IMG/VR virus record: IMGVR_UViG_3300045988_025679
Coordinates: 1 to 30,607 of that record
DNA length: 30,607 bases
Origin: a virus
Reading direction: 5' to 3' (one strand)
Shown: positions 2,256 through 12,097 of the stretch, in pieces
How the letters are laid out: every line of letters begins with the position of its first letter
Numbering within the stretch: the stretch's first letter is position 1
Position numbers and translations under genes: made by a program
The notes under the pieces: generated by a model
Told to the model about the DNA's origin: nothing
Seen by the model: only the letters and a program-made list of their open reading frames with translations
Databases searched by the model: none

Positions 2256-2480
2256 CTATCTCTCCTTACTAACTCCATAATTATCCACAATGTGCCAGTC
2301 ATCACATGCACAATTGCTGATTGTATACACGATATCGTCTGAATCTGTTAATTTGAAATCAACACCATCTTTTGTGTGGATCATGATGATTCCATCTACG
2401 ATATGCCAATATCCAGTCCAATGACTACGTGCCACCTTGTGGCCACGTGTCATAGATATAAATGCAGATGCAAAATTCAT
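2256..2480 (-). CDS. DUF2829-like small protein (the family that contains the Tad2 anti-Thoeris sponges)
   Basis: 74 aa. The N-terminus MNFASAFISMTRGHKVARSHWTG fits the DUF2829 signature (M-x-F-x-x-A...G-x-K-V-x-R-x-x-W). The C-terminal DDWHIV matches the family's DW-x-I/V ending. Confidence 0.5.
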   Translation of the reverse strand: MNFASAFISMTRGHKVARSHWTGYWHIVDGIIMIHTKDGVDFKLTDSDDIVYTISNCACDDWHIVDNYGVSKER

Positions 2481-2493
2481 ATACAGTTACCTC

Positions 2494-2742
2494 CTAGATC
2501 AACTCAACATTTTCAATCTTTGTACGAATAACAAGGATGTCCATATATCTTTTCATGGCATCTAATTGAAGATCATAGATTTCTCTTGGACAAGTCGGTT
2601 TGAAATTCAACTTTCCTTCATCCCATTTTTCGCACATAGCTTTCAATTTGTCGTGACGAATCTTTACTTGAAAATACTCGCCTTTGAATCTGTCTTTGTA
2701 ATCTGCAGAGTTCATCAACTCTACTGTTTCATTTAACTCCAT
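2494..2742 (-). CDS. Hypothetical small helical phage protein
   Basis: 82-aa ORF with a GGAGG RBS upstream. It has a weak resemblance to small helical crAss001_48-type phage proteins (..KLKAM..., ..QLDAMKRYMDIL..). No function is assigned. Confidence 0.55.
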   Translation of the reverse strand: MELNETVELMNSADYKDRFKGEYFQVKIRHDKLKAMCEKWDEGKLNFKPTCPREIYDLQLDAMKRYMDILVIRTKIENVELI

Positions 2743-2752
2743 AACTTTCCTC

Positions 2753-3001
2753 CTATAATTTAGTTACATTTAACATCACATAGCCTTCTTTGAATCCATC
2801 GTTAGTAGTGATGCTGCGAATCTGTGTCATTCTAAATAAACCAGTATCCATTTCTTTTCCTTCGTCTAACGATACTTGTTTAAATAACACATAATCTTGT
2901 TCATTGATTTGCTCATCAGTCAAATCAAGAATAATAAAATCGTGTTCTTGGAAAAAATTCCATAATTTAGTATTTAAATTGATTTCATGTGTTTTAACCA
3001 T
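2753..3001 (-). CDS. DUF3850-like (ASCH/PUA-fold) small protein
   Basis: 82 aa. THEINL at the N-terminus and GFKEGYVMLNV at the C-terminus resemble the DUF3850 pattern (HELKI ... GLKEGYVVLSI). A GGAGG RBS is present. Confidence 0.5.
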   Translation of the reverse strand: MVKTHEINLNTKLWNFFQEHDFIILDLTDEQINEQDYVLFKQVSLDEGKEMDTGLFRMTQIRSITTNDGFKEGYVMLNVTKL

Positions 3002-3044
3002 TTAAAATCCTCCTATTAATATAAAAAAAGCGAGGTAAACAAAA

Positions 3045-3938
3045 ATGCTATATTCTGACAAATTACATTCTTGGTTAAAAGAAAAGAAAATCTATCTAAA
3101 ATACAGCACTTACACAAATTATTGTAATGTGATTCATAATCACGTATTGCCAACACTTGGCACATATAAAATTGAAGAATTGAATAACGATATTCTGCAA
3201 GAGTTTATTCTTCAAAAACTTGAAAATGGTCGTAAAGATGGAAAAGGTGGCATTTCTTTTAAATATGCCAAAGACATTATTCAAATTCTGAAGTTCACAC
3301 TTCCATTTAAAATCGATATTCAACTTCCATACCATCCTCCTACGGCGGTAGAAATTTTTGAAAAAGAAAATCAAATCTCATTGATTAATCACCTCCAATC
3401 TGAGATTAATTACAAAAACTTTGGAATCCTGTTATGCATCCACACTGGAATACGCATAGGTGAACTATGCGCTTTGAAATGGTCTGATATAAACATTCAA
3501 ACCAAATTGTTAAAAATAGATAAAACCATGATACGTACATACACAAAAGAAGACGGTAGTCATCTTTCAATAACACCGCCTAAATCACGTTCTAGCACTC
3601 GTATGATTCCTCTTAACGCTTGGATAATGCATTATGCTATATTGCTTCAAGGTGATGCAGATAACTATGTATTAACGAATCGAGATAAACCGATAGAGCC
3701 TAATAAATACAGGCTTTACTACAATCGACTACTTAAAGACCTTGAACTTCCACACCTCAAATTCCACGCATTAAGACACACATTTGCAACAAGATGCATT
3801 GAATGTGGTTGTGATTATAAATCACTTAGTGAATTACTTGGCCATTCCAATGTTTCGATCACTATGAATATCTACGTTCATCCTCAAATGGAATTAAAAA
3901 GAAAATGTGTAGAATTACTTTGCGATTACTACAAGTAA
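3045..3938 (+). CDS. Tyrosine site-specific recombinase, proposed shufflon invertase (Rci/CreX-like role)
   Basis: 297 aa. It has an N-terminal SAM-like core-binding region and the catalytic signature: box I HTGIRIGELCALKWSDI, PPKSRSSTRMIPL, box II HALRHTFAT, LGHSNVSIT and nucleophile Tyr in MNIYVH (Y277). It is the only full-length plus-strand gene, and its stop codon lies 2 nt from the left inverted repeat of the cassette segment. Confidence 0.9.
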   Translation: MLYSDKLHSWLKEKKIYLKYSTYTNYCNVIHNHVLPTLGTYKIEELNNDILQEFILQKLENGRKDGKGGISFKYAKDIIQILKFTLPFKIDIQLPYHPPTAVEIFEKENQISLINHLQSEINYKNFGILLCIHTGIRIGELCALKWSDINIQTKLLKIDKTMIRTYTKEDGSHLSITPPKSRSSTRMIPLNAWIMHYAILLQGDADNYVLTNRDKPIEPNKYRLYYNRLLKDLELPHLKFHALRHTFATRCIECGCDYKSLSELLGHSNVSITMNIYVHPQMELKRKCVELLCDYYK

Positions 3939-3940
3939 AT

Positions 3941-3977
3941 GTATGTCTTTTACTACTGATTCGAGCGGTGGTGAATA
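3941..3977 (+). repeat. Recombination site B (cassette 1): GTATGTCTTTTAC core inside a 37-bp perfect inverted repeat
   Basis: GTATGTCTTTTACTACTGATTCGAGCGGTGGTGAATA is identical to the reverse complement of 5034-5070. Confidence 0.85.
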
Positions 3978-4221
3978 CTATCATAAACTTACACGTGAAG
4001 AGCTACCGAGCCATACGCATTGGATCTTAGACCAACAAACTGATGTAACCACTGCATTATATGGTAATCCATATAGTGATGTACCTTTTACGAGAGCCAC
4101 TGAACGTGCTAATAGAACTAATTATTATTGGTACGGTCAAACATGGCCAACAGGCGGAAACAAACCACACGATAATGTACAACCTTACGTGGTAACTTAC
4201 TTTTGGAGACGTATCAAGTAG
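3943..4221 (+). CDS. Silent tail-fibre C-terminal cassette 1 (92 aa)
   Basis: The cassette begins MSFTTDSSGGEYYHKLTREELPSHTH and ends HDNVQPYVVTYFWRRIK, parallel to the last 100 aa of the 629-aa fibre. There is no Shine-Dalgarno sequence before the ATG. Its orientation is opposite to the fibre gene. Confidence 0.8.
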   Translation: MSFTTDSSGGEYYHKLTREELPSHTHWILDQQTDVTTALYGNPYSDVPFTRATERANRTNYYWYGQTWPTGGNKPHDNVQPYVVTYFWRRIK

Positions 4222-4494
4222 CTATTTTACCCTTCGCCAAAAGAAAACAACTAAATATGGTTGCACGTTATTGTGTGGAATATTGCCACCAGATCCATTT
4301 GTATGAATACTATTTACATTGTGACTTTGACCATCAGAATGATGCGAACCATTAATGGCCATAAATTCCCACGGAGTAGTTGTTAAAACGCCAGACGTAC
4401 CCCATATACCAACTTCGTGTGCGTGAGCAGGCATTTCAGAATATGATAACGTATGATAGTATTCACCACCTTCAGAATTGGTTGTAAATGACAT
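4222..4494 (-). CDS. Silent tail-fibre C-terminal cassette 2 (90 aa from the internal Met)
   Basis: The homologous part starts at MSFTTNSEGGEYYHTLSYSEMPAHAH (ATG 4494) and ends HNNVQPYLVVFFWRRVK. The 20 extra codons in the ORF track (to 4554) run antisense across the cassette 3 start and are probably not meaningful. No RBS is present. Confidence 0.75.
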   Translation of the reverse strand: MSFTTNSEGGEYYHTLSYSEMPAHAHEVGIWGTSGVLTTTPWEFMAINGSHHSDGQSHNVNSIHTNGSGGNIPHNNVQPYLVVFFWRRVK

Positions 4495-4496
4495 AC
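4480..4496 (-). repeat. Recombination site C (cassette 2)
   Basis: The reverse complement reads GTATGTCATTTACAACC and shares the GTATGTC-W-TTTAC core with the other three sites. Confidence 0.75.
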
Positions 4497-4514
4497 CTAT
4501 ATAACCGATTAAAA

Positions 4515-4531
4515 GTATGTCATTTACATCC
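4515..4531 (+). repeat. Recombination site D (cassette 3)
   Basis: GTATGTCATTTACATCC. It forms a 14-bp perfect inverted repeat with site C across an 18-bp spacer (4497-4514). Confidence 0.75.
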
Positions 4532-4765
4532 GGAAAAACATACGGAGAATACAAGCACCAACTAACAATACAAGAAATGCCTAATCATGCGCATAAATTT
4601 AATGACTGCGCTTGGATTGACGGAAAAGGAAATATCCAATCCGCATCAAATAACTCATGGTTTAATGGTGGCTATATGAGTAATACAACAAACACAGGAG
4701 GAAACCAAGCACATAATAATTTACAGCCATCCATTGTAACTTACTTTTGGAAACGAATTAAATAA
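4517..4765 (+). CDS. Silent tail-fibre C-terminal cassette 3 (82 aa)
   Basis: MSFTSGKTYGEYKHQLTIQEMPNHAH ... HNNLQPSIVTYFWKRIK. There is no RBS. Its stop codon abuts the stop codon of the expressed fibre gene. Confidence 0.8.
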   Translation: MSFTSGKTYGEYKHQLTIQEMPNHAHKFNDCAWIDGKGNIQSASNNSWFNGGYMSNTTNTGGNQAHNNLQPSIVTYFWKRIK

Positions 4766-6655
4766 TCATTGCGTTCTTCGCCAAAAGAACGTGGTTATGT
4801 AGGGTTGAACGTTATTATGATGCACATTATCTCCTGCCCAACCAGTATAAACAAACGCAGAAGCATCTGTGGCATTAACCTTTTCATTTGGAGTGACATA
4901 GTTTTTTGTGCTTCTATCAATCATTACTCCAAAACTGTCAATAGTTCGTTCCTCCCAACCAGCATATCCTTTAACCATCAATCTCACACTATGATGATGT
5001 TTCGGCATTTCAGTTTCTAGCAGTTTGTGCTTATATTCACCACCGCTCGAATCAGTAGTAAAAGACATACTTGTACTACCATCGTTTCCAGTACCTTCTC
5101 CGACCAAAGTTCGACCTTGACCGAACTGTTCCCAAGTTCCACCCAAGAATGTTCCTGGGTTCTTTTTATCGTATGTGATATAGACTGCGCCAACCGGGAA
5201 TATCTTATTTAAGAAAATAGGAGCTACAATATCACCTAGTACAGTTAATGTATCTTTTTGATTAGCGTCTTGACCAAAGAGCGTCAATGATCTTCCATCT
5301 TTACCAAAGTTTATCAATGAGTAAGCAGGAGCTACAGTAAATATTTGCCATGAATAATCACTCATGAACTTATCCTTAACGCCGAACGCAACCTCATAGG
5401 AACTTGTTGCAGATGTGAATAAATTACCTGCTTTGTAATCTTGTTCAAGCGTGTAGTTGTTATCCCACGAATTTATTTTCGTCCATGAACTAGCACCACT
5501 TGCTCGATATTGAATATAGAATGATGTTACATTCTTATTGCTTAAACTAGTAAATCCAACTTTGAAGTGTAATAAAGCATATGTACCACTTGCCTCATCA
5601 ATCGCATAACTTGAGTTAGCACGTTTTGCAGTTACATTCGTTAAGCTTGGGGGACTGTATGCAGATACAGTGACCGAACCACTCTTAGATGAAGTTCGAC
5701 CACGTGAATCTGTAACTGTGATTGTGTACGACAACTTGCCACTTCCCTGTACAGTACCTGTAGTAAATGAACTATCATTATATGTTTGTCCTTCAAATTT
5801 AGTTGATACAGATGTAACAGTTGAGCCTTGACTACCACTTGTAGCAATTGAGAACTTTAATCTTGATTGACTTTGAACATGTTGACCTATTCCTACGCAG
5901 ATTGAATTTGTATCAGATATCGAGACCGTTCCAACACTAGGAACGACTCCACTTCTTACTTTAATTGTTGCATTTACTGATTTTGAGCCAACCGAAGTTG
6001 AACCACTGAATGTTTCTAATGTAAATGTAGCAATTCCGCTTATCGAATTAGGTAAGTCCTTTTCCCATGCGGTAGGAATCGTATAAGAAAAAGTGGGTGT
6101 TAATGTCCCACTTATCGTTGTTAATTCACTTGTTTTACCATTCCATGTTGCGTAGATTTTATGTGTAAAGTTTTTTGAAGCACTCGAGCCATTAATATTT
6201 ATAGTGTTACCACATTCAATACTAGGACTATCAATAGATATACTTGATGCTCTTGGAATAGTTGTCAATTTAACTGTACCACTGCAAGAACCAGTAATAG
6301 GTGCATAATATCCAGAGTTACTTCCACTGAAAGATGCACTTACCGAAATTGTTTTTGATCCATCTGCATCATGTGAAATAGTTACTGCTCCACTTTTTAC
6401 ACCGACAAGTGTATTTACTGGTACATTAGGTGTAAAGCTTTGGTTTAACACTTGAGTACCATTCACGGATACTGTAAATGTTTCAGGAATTCCGTTGTGT
6501 GTATGGTACTGCGTATTTGAACGAATACCGACCCACCACTCTACATATGATGTGTTATTTTCAACAGAATAAGATATTTCATTGATTCGCAGTATCAACG
6601 AATACTTATCCCACTGGCCACTACCAATTTGTATTCCGCCACTAAATTCTGCCAT
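4766..6655 (-). CDS. Tail fibre / receptor-binding protein with a switchable tail-collar-like C-terminal tip
   Basis: 629 aa, immediately downstream of Tal. The middle is Ser/Thr-rich and beta-like. The C-terminal region IFPVGAVYITYDKKNPGTFLGGTWEQFGQGRTLVG ... GGEYKHKL..EMPKHHH ... HNNVQPYITTFFWRRTQ fits the tail-collar/fibre-tip family pattern. Confidence 0.85.
   Translation of the reverse strand: MAEFSGGIQIGSGQWDKYSLILRINEISYSVENNTSYVEWWVGIRSNTQYHTHNGIPETFTVSVNGTQVLNQSFTPNVPVNTLVGVKSGAVTISHDADGSKTISVSASFSGSNSGYYAPITGSCSGTVKLTTIPRASSISIDSPSIECGNTININGSSASKNFTHKIYATWNGKTSELTTISGTLTPTFSYTIPTAWEKDLPNSISGIATFTLETFSGSTSVGSKSVNATIKVRSGVVPSVGTVSISDTNSICVGIGQHVQSQSRLKFSIATSGSQGSTVTSVSTKFEGQTYNDSSFTTGTVQGSGKLSYTITVTDSRGRTSSKSGSVTVSAYSPPSLTNVTAKRANSSYAIDEASGTYALLHFKVGFTSLSNKNVTSFYIQYRASGASSWTKINSWDNNYTLEQDYKAGNLFTSATSSYEVAFGVKDKFMSDYSWQIFTVAPAYSLINFGKDGRSLTLFGQDANQKDTLTVLGDIVAPIFLNKIFPVGAVYITYDKKNPGTFLGGTWEQFGQGRTLVGEGTGNDGSTSMSFTTDSSGGEYKHKLLETEMPKHHHSVRLMVKGYAGWEERTIDSFGVMIDRSTKNYVTPNEKVNATDASAFVYTGWAGDNVHHNNVQPYITTFFWRRTQ
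5034..5070 (-). repeat. Recombination site A, inside the expressed tail-fibre gene
   Basis: This is the reverse complement of 3941-3977. It lies at codons ..STS-MSFTTDSSGGEY.., exactly where similarity to the cassettes begins. Confidence 0.85.
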
Positions 6656-6659
6656 TCAA

Positions 6660-9600
6660 TCACCCTACTTTCTTGAAATCTAAAGATCCATTTGCTCTTG
6701 GAACGAATCCAAATGCACCAATTTTCAATGACTGCGTAAATTGCCCATCTGTAATGTACATTGTTTGGTCGTTTATATATGTTACCTTTGCACCGTTCTT
6801 TTGAATCGACCACTCTTCATTTGTAATCTTAGTCTTAAATGCACTGTTTGATTTACCTAAAGTTAATCCATCGTTATCAAACGACATATAACTGTTTACG
6901 TTATCTGCAGTTTGTTTTAAACCATCCAATCTACCATTCACACTGCTGATTTGACCATTCATTTCATTTTTAGCATCAGTCACGCTTTGATTAATTGACC
7001 ACGTAAAATCGCTCTTAGTTTGGCTAAACTGAGTAGATACTTCTTCTTTATAATGATTCAAAGCCGAATTTGATACGTAAGTTTCACTAACCTTTGAAGT
7101 AATTTCATTTGCCTTAGTCTCAATTGCAGATTGACGAGTGGTACGTTCTTCGTTTATTGCATCGTCTATATCTTCAGGAGCAGGAGTCCAATCTGTAGAA
7201 ATTGTGCCGATTTCTAATTTTGGTTTTCTAATATGGATAGAACCATTCTTGAATAATGCAAATCGAACACCGAAAAATTTAACATCATTGAGGGTGACAT
7301 TATCTACACCTATGTTCATATTTGACAAATCACCCTTTTTGGTTAAAACAACTTTGACCCATTCACCATTCTTTTTATCACCTTTAATTTTGACAAAAGA
7401 GTCTGAAAGATATGTATCGTGATAATAAATTCTTGCGTTATTTGCATTATAATACTCTAATATCACTGGTGACGGTATATCCCACTTTGACCAATCATCG
7501 ACTTTTAAATCAAACGATAGCGTAAAATTTTGGTTTAATAACAAATTCATGTTTACTTTTTTTGAATACATACTATATAAATTCAATGATGTCGAATTAG
7601 AAGTACTACAGGATATCGTAGAATGAGAATCATCTTTAGTGATTTTCCAACCACCACTATTATTCCAATCTGTAAAACTAGAGCTATTTCTCAATAAATT
7701 CCTACCGCCAATTTGTAGATTATCAACCTTATTACTAGTTTCAGTAATGGACTTTGCTTGTAATTTAATAGCATCGGAATTTTGTTCGATTTTAGTTGTG
7801 TTAGAAGTAACTTTATTCGTTAAATCTGCTAAATCTTTCTGAGCTTGTTCTGCTTTCTGCTTTGCATCATCCGCCACTCCCTGAGCCGTCTTTGCATTAT
7901 TGATTGCCGTAGTTGCGTTACCTTGAGCCTTAGTTGCATCAGATTGAGCTTTCTCCACTGCAGTTTCTGCGTTTGTTAAACGAGTTTGAGCTTTTGTGAT
8001 TTCGCTCTCAGTCGCATCAACTCTACCAGTCACTGATTCTAGATTAGCTTTTGCATCCGCTAATTCCTTGTTAGCATTGTCTAAATTTAATTGAGCACTG
8101 TCTGCCTTTTGTTTAGCTTCATCTGCTAATGACTGAGCACTCTGTGCATTTGTAATTGCTTGAGTAGCAGTTGATTGTGCTTGCGTTGCCTTTTTTGTTG
8201 CTTCAGTAATATCTAACTGAGCTTGAGTTGTATCTGATTGCAATCTTTCAATTGAACTTGCTTGAGTTGATATTGTATCTGCAGTTTGTTCAAACTTTGT
8301 GTTCATACTTCCTTCAAGTGTTGTTAAATCACTCTTAGAAGCATAATTTTGAGAAACCGTAGTCGATAGTTCACCTACTTTCTCTTCGATTTCAGTTGTG
8401 ACATCTGCATGAATAGATTTTGATTCAGTAGTTAAATCAACTTTTGTAGCATACGTTTCTTTTACAGTAGCAATTTCTCCTGCATTGGCATTTGCCTTAT
8501 CAACTGCATCTTGAATCTGTTGCTTTGAATCATCGATATCTCCTTTAATCGCATCAATCTGTTTCTGAGTGTTACCAGTACTAGTATTTGCTTCTTGTGC
8601 TAGTTGCATAGCTTCACTTGATTGAGTGTTAGCAGTATTAGCTAATTCATTCGCTTTTGTTGCATCTGCCTGAGCTTGAGTTGCTTTATCAACTGCTTCT
8701 TTGGATTGCACATTTGCTTGAGATACTTGTGTATGGATTACACCAATCTTTGCATCAATCTCATTCCACGTGTTATCAAATATCGCTTTCGTGTACTTAA
8801 TTTCACTTGGATTAGCATACGTACACTTCCATCTTTTCCAAAGGAACTTATCACTTTGATAAACAACATTACCAACAAACCACTCACCACCGTTTAATTC
8901 AGTTTGTGATGTTGAATAATAGAACTGTTCCTCTGCACTTACAAATGATTGACCGTCCTCACCCTTAATTGCACTCCATCTGTATTTTGTTGGGTCATCA
9001 CTGCCATATTGCTTTGAGTCAGAATACTGACCAATAAATTTACGATTTGATTCTGTCAAACTAAAATCAACACGACCATCTGAACTGTTGGCATAGGCAA
9101 TATGCACATATGCACTTGTACCATTCTGACCGTCTTGTAATCGCATTACAGTGACTTCTGCACTTGCTTTAAGTATTTCACCACTCATTGCTTTAAATCG
9201 ATATACGGCCTTTTCCGTGAAGTCTGAAGCGTTGACTGTGATTGTTTGACTTGTTGATATTTGATCGTCGTCTTTATACCAAATAATTGAATACTTAGAT
9301 GTGATATCAACTCCATCATTCTTAACAATTGCAGTTAATTGAGTCGAATCTGAATCAGTCTTAAATAGAATTCCATTTGAAGATACAATTGAGCCTTCAT
9401 AAACTTTCTTTAACTCAATCATCTTGTTCATTTCACTGATCAGAGCCGAACTAATCTGCGATTGCTTTTCTTCAAAGTTATCAAAGATAGTTTTGCATTT
9501 CTCTGAATCTGTAAAACAAATCTCTTGTTCTGTGATTCGTGCTTCTAAATATAAAGTAGGACTATACTCCGCATCTTCAATCGTGAACGTATCACCGATA

Positions 9601-10571
9601 TCCGCATCAATATATGCATCTACATCATATGTAACTTTAGGAACACAATTCTTTTTCAATTGAGCTAGTGCTTGACCATATAAGGTTTCTACACTGTCTG
9701 TTTCATAAGACCACACTAGCACTGCATACATATCGTTTGAATGATTTGTTAATAACGTACTAGGAAATCTATCTCTAGATTGAGGTGCAAGTATATTGTT
9801 ACCTTGAACTTTATACAAAATATTTCCATTTGAATCTTTTACAACACGGCCACTAATCGAGTTAAGTTGTAACCCATTATTACCCGTAGGTCTGATACCT
9901 GTATACAACTCTGTAATATCACTTGTTTTAGTGATTCCGTAAACATCATTAGGATATCTTAAGATCGTGCTACGCTTATCACTTCCCATTCCTTGAACGG
10001 AATCTGAATGAGCTCTGTAAATATTCAACACAAAATTCTTCAAAGAATAATCATCATTCAATTGAGTTACGAACTCTAATTCTGCATCAAATACATTTGC
10101 AATTGAATACAATCGAGCTAGTACAGTATCGCTACCAGTCCACTCATGCGTGATACGTTTGTCTGATACCTCATTTTTGCCAATTACGAACGATTTCTCA
10201 AATCCATACGCATTTACATATTCTGCAAATGACATAGCTCTAGGAGCTTTATAAGCATCTACATATTCATTCGTTAATTCAAGGCAAAGGCCATAGGCGG
10301 TAACATTTGTTGTGTCACCACCTTTTTCTACGTTCATGATAGTTAAGTAGTAGCCTTTGTTTTTTCTTGTAAAGCTCAGTTTATTTCCTTCAACTAAAAA
10401 TGCTGCATCATCATGTGCAGTCAATGTAGTAAATTCGAATGTATACGATGAGCCTTTTAAATAAGTATGCAATGTTTCATCAAAGTAATGCATTGCACTA
10501 GGTACTGTGTTGTCTAAAAAAGCTAGAACTTTGTCATAAGGAGTTAATACTGCTATTCTGATTTGTTCCAT
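6660..10571 (-). CDS. Tal-type tail tip protein (phage minor structural protein / prophage tail endopeptidase N-terminal domain) with a long coiled coil and a CBM-like module
   Basis: About 1300 aa, located after Dit. The ORF opens at 10580, but ATG 10571 has better GGGAGG spacing and overlaps the Dit stop (TAATG). A long Ala/Gln/Thr-rich coiled coil is followed by the IGGRNLLRNS... module typical of carbohydrate-binding extensions. Confidence 0.8.
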   Translation of the reverse strand: MEQIRIAVLTPYDKVLAFLDNTVPSAMHYFDETLHTYLKGSSYTFEFTTLTAHDDAAFLVEGNKLSFTRKNKGYYLTIMNVEKGGDTTNVTAYGLCLELTNEYVDAYKAPRAMSFAEYVNAYGFEKSFVIGKNEVSDKRITHEWTGSDTVLARLYSIANVFDAELEFVTQLNDDYSLKNFVLNIYRAHSDSVQGMGSDKRSTILRYPNDVYGITKTSDITELYTGIRPTGNNGLQLNSISGRVVKDSNGNILYKVQGNNILAPQSRDRFPSTLLTNHSNDMYAVLVWSYETDSVETLYGQALAQLKKNCVPKVTYDVDAYIDADIGDTFTIEDAEYSPTLYLEARITEQEICFTDSEKCKTIFDNFEEKQSQISSALISEMNKMIELKKVYEGSIVSSNGILFKTDSDSTQLTAIVKNDGVDITSKYSIIWYKDDDQISTSQTITVNASDFTEKAVYRFKAMSGEILKASAEVTVMRLQDGQNGTSAYVHIAYANSSDGRVDFSLTESNRKFIGQYSDSKQYGSDDPTKYRWSAIKGEDGQSFVSAEEQFYYSTSQTELNGGEWFVGNVVYQSDKFLWKRWKCTYANPSEIKYTKAIFDNTWNEIDAKIGVIHTQVSQANVQSKEAVDKATQAQADATKANELANTANTQSSEAMQLAQEANTSTGNTQKQIDAIKGDIDDSKQQIQDAVDKANANAGEIATVKETYATKVDLTTESKSIHADVTTEIEEKVGELSTTVSQNYASKSDLTTLEGSMNTKFEQTADTISTQASSIERLQSDTTQAQLDITEATKKATQAQSTATQAITNAQSAQSLADEAKQKADSAQLNLDNANKELADAKANLESVTGRVDATESEITKAQTRLTNAETAVEKAQSDATKAQGNATTAINNAKTAQGVADDAKQKAEQAQKDLADLTNKVTSNTTKIEQNSDAIKLQAKSITETSNKVDNLQIGGRNLLRNSSSFTDWNNSGGWKITKDDSHSTISCSTSNSTSLNLYSMYSKKVNMNLLLNQNFTLSFDLKVDDWSKWDIPSPVILEYYNANNARIYYHDTYLSDSFVKIKGDKKNGEWVKVVLTKKGDLSNMNIGVDNVTLNDVKFFGVRFALFKNGSIHIRKPKLEIGTISTDWTPAPEDIDDAINEERTTRQSAIETKANEITSKVSETYVSNSALNHYKEEVSTQFSQTKSDFTWSINQSVTDAKNEMNGQISSVNGRLDGLKQTADNVNSYMSFDNDGLTLGKSNSAFKTKITNEEWSIQKNGAKVTYINDQTMYITDGQFTQSLKIGAFGFVPRANGSLDFKKVG

Positions 10572-12097
10572 TATAACCATGCCTCCCTAATTCTAGCCTT
10601 TACTATTGGTTTTGATTCTGACCAACTTGAGCACGTAGTCTTTATCTCTGTAGTTCCTACTGGAGCTTTAAAATACTTAGTTTCTAAAACCTCATCTTGA
10701 GGTCTATACATTCCGTTTACATAAACGTGCGATGATTTACCATCAATTGTAATTTTCGTACCATTAGGATATCTATTAGGAATATCTCTCCATTTTGATA
10801 CATTGTTTTTCGTGAAGTTGATTACATCAAAGCCCATCATACTCATTAGTTGATTACCGCCTCTGTTACCCCATTGCTTGAATGCAATCTGAATCTTGGC
10901 ACACTTCATATTTGCAATTTCTGGGATATAATAATTGTAATATCCTCCGTAATAGAAGAAGCGGATATTTCCGCCTTCTTTTAAAATATCGCAATGTCCC
11001 CAATTCCAGTACCAAGGATTTTGAGATTGTAAATGAGAAGTAGTATATGAGAAGTTTCTTAACATTTTACCATTCGCCCAAAACTCATAGTGACCTGTAT
11101 TTCCAACTGTATCTGTCTTGTACCAGTTACAACCGCAAATCAGTTTATTATCTGCAGTTAAGAAGTTGATACACATTTCTCCTGTTTGCCCCATTAGACC
11201 TGCATAAAACAACAAATGAAAATAACAATAGAAGTTCTTAGATCCACTTGAATCTCCATTTGAATCTGCAGGTATTACCAAGGTTCTTAATCCACCGCTC
11301 GCAGACCCTTTTTTTGTTCCAACAGTTCCAAATCCAATAAACTTTTGATTAAACCAAGTGTGTTCGGCTAATGTACCATTCGAACCGTACTGAGGATGCA
11401 TTACATCCGTTCCACTAGTGTCATCTGCACAATTATAGAAATTGTTGATGCTAACTAAATGTTCGCTTTGTTGATATGTTTCTGAATCAAGTTCTTCGAT
11501 TTTTCCATACTGCATTACTCCTTCAGTTGATACGATACCAATATATCCAGTTTCAGATGTTACCTGAACCTCATAATCAATACTTACAGGTACAGTTCCT
11601 TCATTGACAATGTTTAACACTCCATCCGTTGCAGTGAACTCTTTTTCTGCAGTTGAATATTTCCTAGGGTCTGAGCAATAGATTTCGATTTCACCGATTA
11701 CGTTATTACTTCCGCCATCAACTTGTGTGTTAGATGTCTTAGTTCCAATGAAATACTTGTCGCTTTCATCATTAAAAATGACTTTTACTTGCTCGCCACT
11801 CAACAATTTATTCATCTTGTTGTAAGCTTCTCGAAATTCTCTGTTTCCTCTTGCTCTCAACTGATATTTAACAGTAATCGTTCTTGCAGGAGTTGTTTTA
11901 TATCTGTAATAAGAACCATCCATTCCATCAATTTCAGTATGTTTTACTTCTGATTCCATCAACTCACGTCCTGTTACAGAAAGTGTACGATATCCATCTA
12001 TTTCATTTTCTAAATATACGCCATTATATGACATGGCTTCTGTCGGTAGGTTAGTACCGACGATGCCACTATTTACTGTATTTACGAATGCATACAT
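10571..12097 (-). CDS. Distal tail protein (Dit), extended form
   Basis: 508 aa, directly after the tape measure gene. The N-terminal siphovirus-tail pattern (..GYRTLSVTGRE....IDGMDGSYY...ARTITVKY) is followed by a large C-terminal insertion. Confidence 0.75.
   Translation of the reverse strand: MYAFVNTVNSGIVGTNLPTEAMSYNGVYLENEIDGYRTLSVTGRELMESEVKHTEIDGMDGSYYRYKTTPARTITVKYQLRARGNREFREAYNKMNKLLSGEQVKVIFNDESDKYFIGTKTSNTQVDGGSNNVIGEIEIYCSDPRKYSTAEKEFTATDGVLNIVNEGTVPVSIDYEVQVTSETGYIGIVSTEGVMQYGKIEELDSETYQQSEHLVSINNFYNCADDTSGTDVMHPQYGSNGTLAEHTWFNQKFIGFGTVGTKKGSASGGLRTLVIPADSNGDSSGSKNFYCYFHLLFYAGLMGQTGEMCINFLTADNKLICGCNWYKTDTVGNTGHYEFWANGKMLRNFSYTTSHLQSQNPWYWNWGHCDILKEGGNIRFFYYGGYYNYYIPEIANMKCAKIQIAFKQWGNRGGNQLMSMMGFDVINFTKNNVSKWRDIPNRYPNGTKITIDGKSSHVYVNGMYRPQDEVLETKYFKAPVGTTEIKTTCSSWSESKPIVKARIREAWL

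Follow-up and report, generated by a model that had tools for sequence, protein, structure and literature searches.

The DNA inversion systems Gin, Cin, Min and Pin (Mu, P1, p15B and e14, respectively) rely on serine recombinases, with a crossover of 2 bp and an enhancer that depends on Fis. Tail-fibre shufflons that depend on a tyrosine recombinase have been described in few gut phages, namely Bifidobacterium Rin, Eggerthella and BV01-like phages. The Rin shufflon was found in Bifidobacterium prophages (Mavrich et al., 2018; PMC6109161), and the BV01-like shufflon has directional 10-bp motifs and shows all of its configurations in sequencing reads (PMC13596623). In this work we analyzed a 30,607-nt stretch of viral DNA, referred to as the window (IMG/VR record IMGVR_UViG_3300045988_025679, positions 1 to 30,607), from a temperate siphophage or prophage of an Erysipelotrichaceae (Holdemanella-like) gut bacterium. 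Its locus adds a well-documented new case to the tyrosine-recombinase shufflons of the known Rin/R64-like class, the likeness to Rin being one of layout and published description.

We read the locus as a multiple-inversion shufflon of a receptor-binding protein (RBP) gene that is run by the adjacent armless tyrosine recombinase, with head conversion on top, and give this reading a probability of about 0.88. The features are listed below; L numbers denote related loci, and site positions are counted from the first base of the 7-bp core (p1).

3045..3938, plus strand: assigned shufflon invertase, an armless tyrosine recombinase of 297 aa with SAM-like core-binding and catalytic domains
4766..6655, minus strand: tail fibre/RBP gene, 629 aa, with DUF859 and a T4 gp10 C-terminal-like domain (Pfam)
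4766..5068, minus strand: cassette 0, expressed, 100 aa, the C-terminal end of the RBP
3943..4221, plus strand: cassette 1, silent, 92 aa, a mosaic with p8-p37 apparently copied from the cassette-0 type and a body of the 'AGWIGG..KLTREELPSHTHWILD' type
4222..4494, minus strand: cassette 2, silent, 90 aa, tail-to-tail with cassette 1
4517..4765, plus strand: cassette 3, silent, 82 aa, tail-to-tail with expressed cassette 0
5058..5080, minus strand: site A with its left arm (13-mer 5058-5070), inside the fixed gene, in the order GGTAGTACAA (5071-5080), core, T, TTTAC; left arm GTACA
3935..3953, plus strand: site B (13-mer 3941-3953), in the order GTAAA (left arm, 3935-3939), T, core GTATGTC (3941-3947), T, TTTAC
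4484..4496, minus strand: site C, GTATGTC A TTTAC, left arm ATATA at 4498-4502; an endpoint of the L078 inversion
4515..4527, plus strand: site D, GTATGTC A TTTAC, left arm TTAAA at 4509-4513
4497..4514, no strand: 18-bp head-to-head spacer, which provides the left arms of sites C and D
3948..3977, plus strand: putative gene-conversion tract p8-p37, identical to 5034-5063 (minus strand); tract and core make up the 37-bp identity of A and B
3967..3985, plus strand: 19-bp block GGTGGTGAATACTATCATA, exact at the reverse complement of 4452-4470

Exact matches to GTATGTCWTTTAC occur only four times in the 30.6 kb, at sites A to D, where ∼0.002 would be expected by chance (our own arithmetic). The first-pass annotation had the coordinates and strands of the four GTATGTC-W-TTTAC sites right, as well as the 10-mers that it quoted upstream of them, and each site is the start of one C-terminal cassette. 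All four are in frame (AGT ATG TCN TTT ACN). The left arm of site B overlaps the recombinase stop codon TAA (3936-3938), and in L083, L084 and L088 the halves of the 4497..4514 spacer adjoin different cassettes. The proposal that relatives should carry the same core motif at their cassette starts was confirmed at ∼174 starts in ∼75 related loci. There are four cassettes in the window and two to eight per locus in relatives, all beginning with the 13-mer, and a first clustering of ∼55 loci gave ∼98 cassette types. Across the family, p1-5 and p7 never vary, p6 is either T or A, and p8 is unconstrained. The core alleles GTATGTC and GTATGAC are never mixed inside one locus, and the recombinase of L037 (A core) is 98% identical to that of L034 (T core), which indicates that the core switch is concerted and polyphyletic. 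At the synonymous positions -8, -5, -2, p2 and p11 of site A, 47, 47, 46, 47 and 47 of 47 distinct sequences agree, i.e., these positions are invariant or nearly so, while p8 and the wobble positions farther upstream vary freely. Taken at the DNA level, the comparisons support the GTATGTC elements as probable recombination sites with a 7-bp exchange core.

The RBP also matches a PHROG tail protein and PDB 2FKK (4.8e-6). Its exchange point falls in the middle of the gp10 C-terminal-like domain, and silent cassettes 1-3 each match the C-terminal half of Pfam Gp10_C. All four cassettes were seen fused to the constant region in some locus. Cassette 1 is expressed (621-aa fibre) in L072, L074-L076 and L082, cassette 2 in L077 and L079 (619/620-aa fibre), with close alleles expressed in L013, L016 and L071, and cassette 3 in L085 (611-aa fibre); cassette 0 is found as a silent stand-alone cassette in L082-L091.

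The recombinase matches Pfam Phage_integrase (1.6e-28) and Phage_int_SAM_3, and its best PDB match is Tn1549 Int (6EMY, 1.6e-16); no curated NCBIfam model passed its own cutoff against it. The assigned catalytic residues R137, K180, H240, R243, H266 and Y276 are all intact. The protein ends 21 residues past the catalytic Tyr (Tyr276 of 297), with the Pfam catalytic-domain alignment stopping at residue 282, and is therefore without an Rci-type C-terminal domain. Other recombinases, serine type included, were not found among the window ORFs from 0.4 to 28.5 kb. Wherever the contig of a related locus extends far enough, a cassette site lies within ∼3-25 bp after the recombinase stop codon, and the gene adjoins cassettes across 61-100% protein identity; on this conserved linkage the recombinase was assigned as the probable shufflon enzyme. 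Homologues in human gut metagenomes number 5918 at E≤1e-30, of which one 90%-identity cluster has 2215 members. Megablast of window 2900-6700 gave no match among GenBank phages, and the best tblastn matches of the recombinase in that set are only 38% identical and unannotated. Bacteroidales relatives (L006-L008; 33-40% identity) showed no shufflon-like inverted repeats downstream. Promoter and terminator scanning of 2400-5200 gave fewer matches than shuffled sequence; the one match of note, TTGATT-18-TAAAAT, lies upstream of the recombinase, at 2979-3008.

Next, we compared the possible inversions with natural isomers. According to the first-pass annotation, A x B would express cassette 1 and A x D cassette 3, and cassette 2 must first be flipped by B x C; a breadth-first search and the isomers agree with this logic. 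From the window arrangement +1 -2 +3 [-0], eight states can be reached, with cassettes 1 and 3 one inversion off and cassette 2 two. Isomers of the window were found by exact-protein look-ups and were drawn from different samples, with flanks 98-99.9% identical. L073 matches the window over 7.9 kb at 100% identity. L082 corresponds to the A x B inversion (window 3934-5077), and L078 to the B x C inversion, which runs precisely from 3941 to 4496. The exact hypothetical junctions of A-left with cassette 1, 2 or 3 were absent from IMG/VR. Junctions of near-identical isomers (flanks 96-99% identical, cassette bodies ∼100%) lie between -1 and p8. Where p8 is informative it travels with the cassette in all junctions but one (L078, converted head), which places most exchanges inside the 7-bp core; the crossover point of A/B recombination is hidden by the 37-bp identity. 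Two-cassette forms were found in both states, +c2[-c1] and +c1[-c2], and p8 again moves with the cassette. L013 and L067, whose flanks are 99.85-99.9% identical, carry the same six cassettes permuted, with every block boundary on a site; this pair also shows a p8-only change. Further site-bounded inverted blocks distinguish L029/L060, L030/L039, L015/L017 and L025/L044. Contigs break off at p7 (L001, L004), at p12 (L002), within a site (L024) and, in L081, at p37, where A and B begin to differ. In practice, the loci of this family systematically break short-read assemblies at their sites.

The 37-bp perfect identity of A and B had been taken as a mark of their most recent exchange. Its length is correct; the A x B interpretation did not hold, and a conversion tract explains the identity instead. 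Among 247 within-locus site pairs, this type of identity is confined to the window and to L012, which is closely related and arranged in the same way, and cassette 1 has its native head (AGWIGGxY) in six relatives (L013, L019, L021, L065, L067 and L071). Conservative site-specific exchange cannot produce an identity of 37 bp, and given the different native head in these relatives, the window head is most likely a tract copied from the expressed cassette type. The 19-bp block said to link cassettes 1 and 2 is indeed an exact match; it consists of the end of the conversion tract and native GG-E/D-Y-Y-H coding sequence rather than a recombinase site, and might serve homologous exchange as a substrate. 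The head of cassette 2 in L078 has been replaced as far as this block. Some exchanges are clearly not confined to the core: in cassettes whose bodies share 97% identity or more, mismatches occur at a rate of 0.44 at p8, of 0.1-0.39 at most of the variable positions from p14 to p35 and of ∼0.02 past p41. A placement of p8 inside the strand-exchange region (heteroduplex) was considered and set aside. Because p8 follows the cassette in near-identical isomers except for the L078 head, p8 changes were treated as part of head conversion.

Several other explanations were weighed against the inversion shufflon. In the first-pass annotation the sites have an arm on the cassette side only, with unrelated DNA in the upstream 10 nt; a strictly one-armed, sfx-like site of this kind would limit the enzyme to inversion and block A/C and B/D deletion. 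Rci/sfx is a precedent for such a site (PMC11852207). The arm on the cassette side is real: some 5-8 nt are conserved there, far better than on the left. Many related loci, e.g., L023 (+ + + -), also keep several direct-repeat sites stably. The left arms, however, are not unrelated. In 38 independent left-context clusters, positions -6 to -2 agree with GTAAA, which is TTTAC inverted, at 3.34 of 5 positions, compared with 1.2-2.1 at the other 20 offsets; in 156 of 161 sites the base at -2 is A, and the left arm of site A is constrained at the DNA level. With left arms that are a degenerate inverted copy of the right arm, the site is an imperfect dyad and not strictly one-armed. Furthermore, the recombinase does not have the C-terminal domain that was proposed to give Rci its inversion-only bias. 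Deletion-like derivatives, which the first-pass annotation suggested looking for, do exist as precise two-cassette forms whose recombinase protein is the same (+c2[-c1], 6 of 10 places), and there are duplicated forms (L084, L088). The orientation-preserving permutation between L013 and L067 costs five inversions, versus two excision/re-insertion steps. We consider the one-armed explanation unlikely, and the idea that asymmetry blocks deletion is weakened by the loci compared.

Since the deletion junction of the two-cassette forms falls within the 37-bp identity, these forms may also have arisen by homologous recombination. Extended to the entire locus, host homologous recombination at the cassette 5' ends (13-mer plus GGEY block) would make the recombinase irrelevant, for example a prophage integrase. 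That junction would fit, as would the exchange of heads separately from bodies, in tracts that end close to the GGxGAATA block; nevertheless, 148 of the 247 within-locus site pairs (60%) have only the 7-bp core in common. An identity of 7 bp is too short for RecA. Nor would homologous recombination confine the junctions of near-identical isomers to the interval from -1 to p8, make the core covary within each locus, freeze non-coding and wobble positions of the site, or keep an armless recombinase beside the cassettes across the whole range of protein identity, and we regard it as very improbable for the locus as a whole. Hardly credible is the explanation that the motif is kept only for S-M-S-F-T coding at a domain boundary, with the other cassettes being static remnants of genes. 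As this explanation would have it, no cassette has the 13-mer out of frame, and TTTAC covers Phe and two bases of Thr. Against it, GT at p1-2 persists also where nothing is encoded, as does A at -2, and the Ser-to-Thr core change hits all cassettes of a locus together. Identical cassettes in differing positions and orientations of near-identical phages, i.e., the isomers themselves, already contradict it.

In the inversion shufflon that we favor, the recombinase would pair any two oppositely oriented gtaaa-N-GTATGTC-N-TTTAC sites, and strand exchange inside the non-palindromic 7-bp core or at its edges would invert the intervening DNA. Site A in the fixed gene encodes S-M-S-F-T, so each inversion at A would fuse the constant 529 residues in frame to another cassette of 82-100 residues, and the swapped-in cassette would complete the gp10-like distal domain. 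The core would have to match between partner sites, yet would not itself be read by the enzyme; the likely binding elements are the TTTAC arm and, more weakly, its inverted left copy. We infer the cleavage positions and the arm that is bound, as well as a role in host range and the timing of inversion. A second, non-conservative process, gene conversion or homologous exchange from the core to the GGxY block ∼30 nt downstream, would swap cassette heads, and would have produced the 37-bp identity of A and B in the window.

The sites might also support excision/re-insertion or intermolecular exchange of convergent cassette pairs, plus recombination-coupled conversion of the first ∼30 nt, which we put forward as a rather doubtful extension. 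Cassette content does not follow the backbone: the constant regions that carry cassettes of at least 97% identity have a median ungapped identity of ∼81%, and backbones at least 97% identical are often without any common cassette. Also consistent with the extension are the L030/L039 site-bounded block (98.5% identical inside 92% flanks), the L013/L067 permutation, the gradient of mismatches decaying from p8 to ∼p40, and the deletion and duplication forms, which resemble reciprocal products. If true, RBP tips would be a mobile, integron-like pool common to diverged phage backbones, and head conversion would add mosaic diversity.

The recombinase family is very common in human gut metagenomes and offers unusually rich natural data, with its cassette types, two core alleles, numerous isomers and a site of 13 bp. 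It is a good system for studying how an armless tyrosine invertase prefers inversion to deletion, for engineering orthogonal site/recombinase pairs, and for following host-range dynamics of Holdemanella phages from metagenomes.

Among known systems, Gin, Cin, Min and Pin resemble the window locus in that inversion beside a dedicated invertase selects tail-fibre C-termini, hence host range; the adjacent enzyme here is a tyrosine recombinase of the Phage_integrase family. The BV01-like Phocaeicola shufflon (PMC13596623) is likewise a gut-phage multi-cassette tail-fibre system flanked by a recombinase, and differs in host and in its motif TGGGAGAACT, which was absent from all loci that the motif search covered. 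The R64/IncI shufflon (Rci, sfx, pilV) has a tyrosine recombinase and sites whose 7-bp core is flanked by a conserved arm on the right and a variable one on the left (PMC11852207); its invertible segments carry convergent pairs of alternative C-terminal exons of one adhesin gene, and some alleles need several inversions, as here. The window locus differs from R64 in the absence of the Rci-type C-terminal extension (defined in PMC11852207), in a left arm that is still like the inverted right arm and frozen at site A, in a right arm of ∼5-8 nt instead of 12, in its target (a phage tail protein instead of a pilus adhesin), and in the deletion-like and duplication-like derivatives. The likeness to Rin (PMC6109161) extends to a phage-encoded armless XerD-like tyrosine recombinase beside alternative RBP C-terminal cassettes (∼95-100 aa) and a gene with a constant N-terminus, a short asymmetric repeat before each cassette, and isomer inversions that end at the repeats. 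In our loci, too, an armless tyrosine recombinase adjoins the cassettes, a constant gene is accompanied by repeat-led cassettes, and isomer breakpoints fall on the repeats (L082, L078, L074-L079 and L013/L067); the same question arises in both of how direct-site deletion is avoided (PMC6109161). The two systems differ in host phylum (Bacillota here, Actinomycetota for Rin), in site (GTATGTC-N-TTTAC in the coding frame here, versus the 11-bp rix TTCCCTAACCC upstream of the Rv genes) and in RBP fold, which is DUF859 plus gp10 C-terminal-like here and 1358/TP901-1-like in Rin.

A siphophage late region makes up the window. Its minus strand carries genes for terminase, portal, capsid, tail tube, tape measure, Dit, Tal (1306 aa) and the fibre protein; holin and endolysin genes come next, and a plus-strand tyrosine recombinase gene separates the fibre gene from these lysis genes. 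The host belongs to the Erysipelotrichaceae; a Holdemanella MAG has a recombinase with 93% identity to that of the window. The features of the shufflon are as follows.

3045-3938, plus strand: tyrosine recombinase, 297 aa
3941-3953, plus strand: site B, exact GTATGTC-W-TTTAC
4484-4496, minus strand: site C, exact GTATGTC-W-TTTAC
4515-4527, plus strand: site D, exact GTATGTC-W-TTTAC
4766-6655, minus strand: fibre protein, 629 aa (DUF859 and gp10-C-terminal-like)
5058-5070, minus strand: site A, exact GTATGTC-W-TTTAC

The observation made in the first-pass annotation is real: its site positions and GTATGTC-W-TTTAC reading, the 10-mers quoted upstream, the 37-bp length of the A/B identity and the 19-bp block common to cassettes 1 and 2 were all reproduced exactly. 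No further exact copy of the site was found in the 30.6-kb window, and the chance expectation for exact matches is ∼0.002 by our arithmetic. An in-frame cassette begins at each of the four sites; one is expressed (c0, 100 aa) and three are silent (c1, c2 and c3; 92, 90, and 82 aa). Each encodes the C-terminal part (∼60%) of the gp10-like domain, and the four are laid out as two convergent pairs with an 18-bp spacer in between. Site B starts 3 bp past the recombinase stop codon. The recombinase has SAM-like core-binding and catalytic domains with intact catalytic residues, and no arm-binding domain or C-terminal extension; no second recombinase turned up in the window's 0.4-28.5 kb interval. 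Immediately outside sites B and A lies an 11-bp inverted repeat (TACTACAAGTA / TACTTGTACTA; 3927-3937 and 5068-5078), where the coding sequences for the recombinase C-terminus (..DYYK-stop) and fibre ..GSTS.. are mirrored, so that the B/A dyad is longer leftwards; the repeat may be coincidental or form part of an extended arm.

An 82-aa ORF (2494-2742, minus strand), flanked by the holin region and the recombinase gene, matches phrog_774 (PHROG, function unassigned), and its counterpart in the related loci L072-L081 has a precomputed Pfam match to PF21825 "Sequestin"; an accessory or anti-defence role is possible. Tal (6660-10580, minus strand), upstream of the shufflon, is mosaic among near-identical phages (compared with L074, L076, L083, L084, and L087), ranges from 1264 to 1448 aa among called genes, and in some relatives has collagen repeats at the place of the window's coiled-coil (alanine-zipper / tropomyosin-like) segment. 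In the relative L072, a PemK-family toxin gene beyond the endolysin (444-935) looks like a moron at a prophage end.

Natural isomers were found among the related loci. L073 matches the window at 100% identity across 7.9 kb. In L082, with flanks ∼99% identical, window 3934-5077 is inverted to give +c0 -c3 +c2 [-c1] (signs are strands; brackets mark the cassette fused to the fixed fibre gene), the product predicted for A x B inversion expressing cassette 1. L078 carries window 3941-4496 inverted with exact endpoints, as predicted for the B x C flip of cassette 2. Forms with cassettes 1 and 2 alone occur in both states, +c2[-c1] (L074, L075) and +c1[-c2] (L077, L079), and L085 expresses cassette 3 (fibre of 611 aa). 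With these isomers, all four window cassette types have been seen fused to the constant region, and the inversion logic of the first-pass annotation is right.

Numbering the core p1-p7, W p8 and TTTAC p9-p13, with negative positions to the left, p8 (T in c0 and c1, A in c2 and c3) moves with the cassette in these near-identical isomers, L078 excepted, and position -1 moves with the left context; exchange therefore takes place inside GTATGTC or at its borders. L013 and L067 share 7.8 kb of flanks at 99.85-99.9% identity; their six cassettes are the same but differently ordered, with all block boundaries on sites, and site-bounded inverted blocks distinguish L029/L060, L030/L039, L015/L017, and L025/L044. 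Short-read contigs end at p7 (L001, L004), at p12 (L002), inside a site (L024) and at p37 (L081), the exact divergence point of A-linked and B-linked sequence, and the scaffold of L076 is gapped at site B; such breaks would be the pattern expected from in-sample heterogeneity. The sole change near any site between L013 (5894-5906) and L067 (4605-4617), phages 99.9% identical, is C to T at p8 of one relocated cassette. Family-wide, p8 is a hot spot, being unequal in 15 of 67 pairs with identical p9-p53.

Protein-guided and pattern-guided searches gave ∼75 related loci, in which a relaxed motif search found ∼174 true cassette starts (2 to 8 sites per locus). These starts carry the same motif: p1-5 and p7 are invariant, p6 is T or A, TTTAC is nearly invariant, and p8 is A, T or C in equal shares and G in none of the ∼174 (0/183 hits scanned). 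The core is uniform within each locus, GTATGTC or GTATGAC at all sites. The A-core allele occurs in at least three recombinase lineages, and the recombinase of L037 (A core) is 98% identical to that of its T-core neighbor L034. The 7-bp core is all that is common to 148 of 247 site pairs within a locus. We concluded that the constraint acts on DNA rather than protein, because the GT of p1-2 and the A of -2 are retained in non-coding contexts and because, at the fixed-gene site (A), synonymous positions -8, -5, -2, p2, and p11 are frozen, in contrast to p8 and the wobble positions farther upstream, which drift.

The left arms had been described as unrelated, making the sites asymmetric. This does not hold: across 38 independent left contexts, 3.34 of the 5 bases at -6..-2 agreed with GTAAA, which is TTTAC inverted, compared with 1.2-2.1 for 20 other offsets, and -2 is A in 156/161 sites. 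Each site is thus an imperfect dyad, gtaaa-N-GTATGTC-N-TTTAC, whose right arm is strong and whose left arm is weak; site orientation is set by the non-palindromic core. At the A site of L072 (5507), a phage otherwise near-identical, a 3-bp deletion (CAA, one Thr codon) directly left of the core leaves GGTAGTA|GTATGTC in place of GGTAGTACAA|GTATGTC.

The inversion-only reading, by analogy with the sfx sites of R64, is weakened on several grounds, and the claim that asymmetry blocks deletion is not supported. The C-terminal domain of Rci, proposed to impose the inversion bias (PMC11852207), is missing from the window recombinase, and the left arms retain symmetry. Two-cassette derivatives with the same recombinase protein are common (6/10 places), and duplicated cassette-pair forms occur in L084 and L088 (also L089), e.g., +c2 -c1 +c3 -c0 +c2 [-c1], in which the copies match the window's cassettes at 100% identity; together these resemble reciprocal products of direct-site recombination. 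The L013/L067 permutation keeps all six orientations and needs five inversions versus only two excision/re-insertion steps. The duplicated forms are either genuine, having arisen by unequal recombination between direct sites, or chimeras that the assembler made from co-existing isomers, and L088 could be such a chimera. Because the deletion junction falls within the 37-bp identity, homologous recombination or slippage would account for it equally well.

That identity had been taken as the trace of a recent A-B exchange, which we reject since an exchange that is conservative cannot give rise to identity. In six relatives, the first ∼30 nt of cassette 1 after the core (the head) is a different sequence, TGCTGGATGGATTGGCGGTGAC (AGWIGGDY), and from p38 on they are identical to the window. 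In the window's cassette 1, p8-p37 were overwritten by a cassette-0-type head, which is also found on cassette 2 of L078. The 19-bp block is the tract end plus native YYH codons, not a site. Comparison of cassettes whose bodies share at least 97% identity gave mismatch rates of 0.44 at p8, 0.1-0.39 across most variable positions of p14-p35, and ∼0.02 past p41; near-identical heads sit on unrelated bodies in 31 pairs. The gradient and the shared heads therefore indicate that a further kind of exchange, a non-conservative one, operates from the core to the GGxY block, a conserved stretch ∼30 nt downstream. The first-pass annotation set crossovers at the GGEY block against its scheme; in these data the two processes coexist, and the core is the main junction.

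"Locked" or decaying shufflons were seen in L014, L026, L055, L061, and L062. L014 (6438-8180) has lost the A site, its fibre ending ..GNDGST-PNISDQ.. without SMSFT, with the recombinase and two silent cassettes still present; the right arm of site A is mutated to TTTGA in L026 (6772-6784); and the recombinase gene is truncated at residue 216 (L055), 153 (L061) or 68 (L062) beside a single expressed cassette. The last 31 bases of L050, a public viral contig, are Illumina TruSeq adapter (AGATCGGAAGAGCGTCGTGTAGGGAAAGAGT), an assembly artefact.

We found no published description of such a shufflon in Holdemanella or Erysipelotrichaceae phages. The window shufflon belongs to an already known kind of system, very well documented here. 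It is not of the Gin/Cin serine type and works like the R64 Rci/sfx shufflon (PMC11852207), although its recombinase is without the C-terminal domain of Rci. It likewise resembles in its working the Rin shufflon found in prophages of bifidobacteria (PMC6109161), but the site sequence, the fold of the RBP and the phylum of the host are different.
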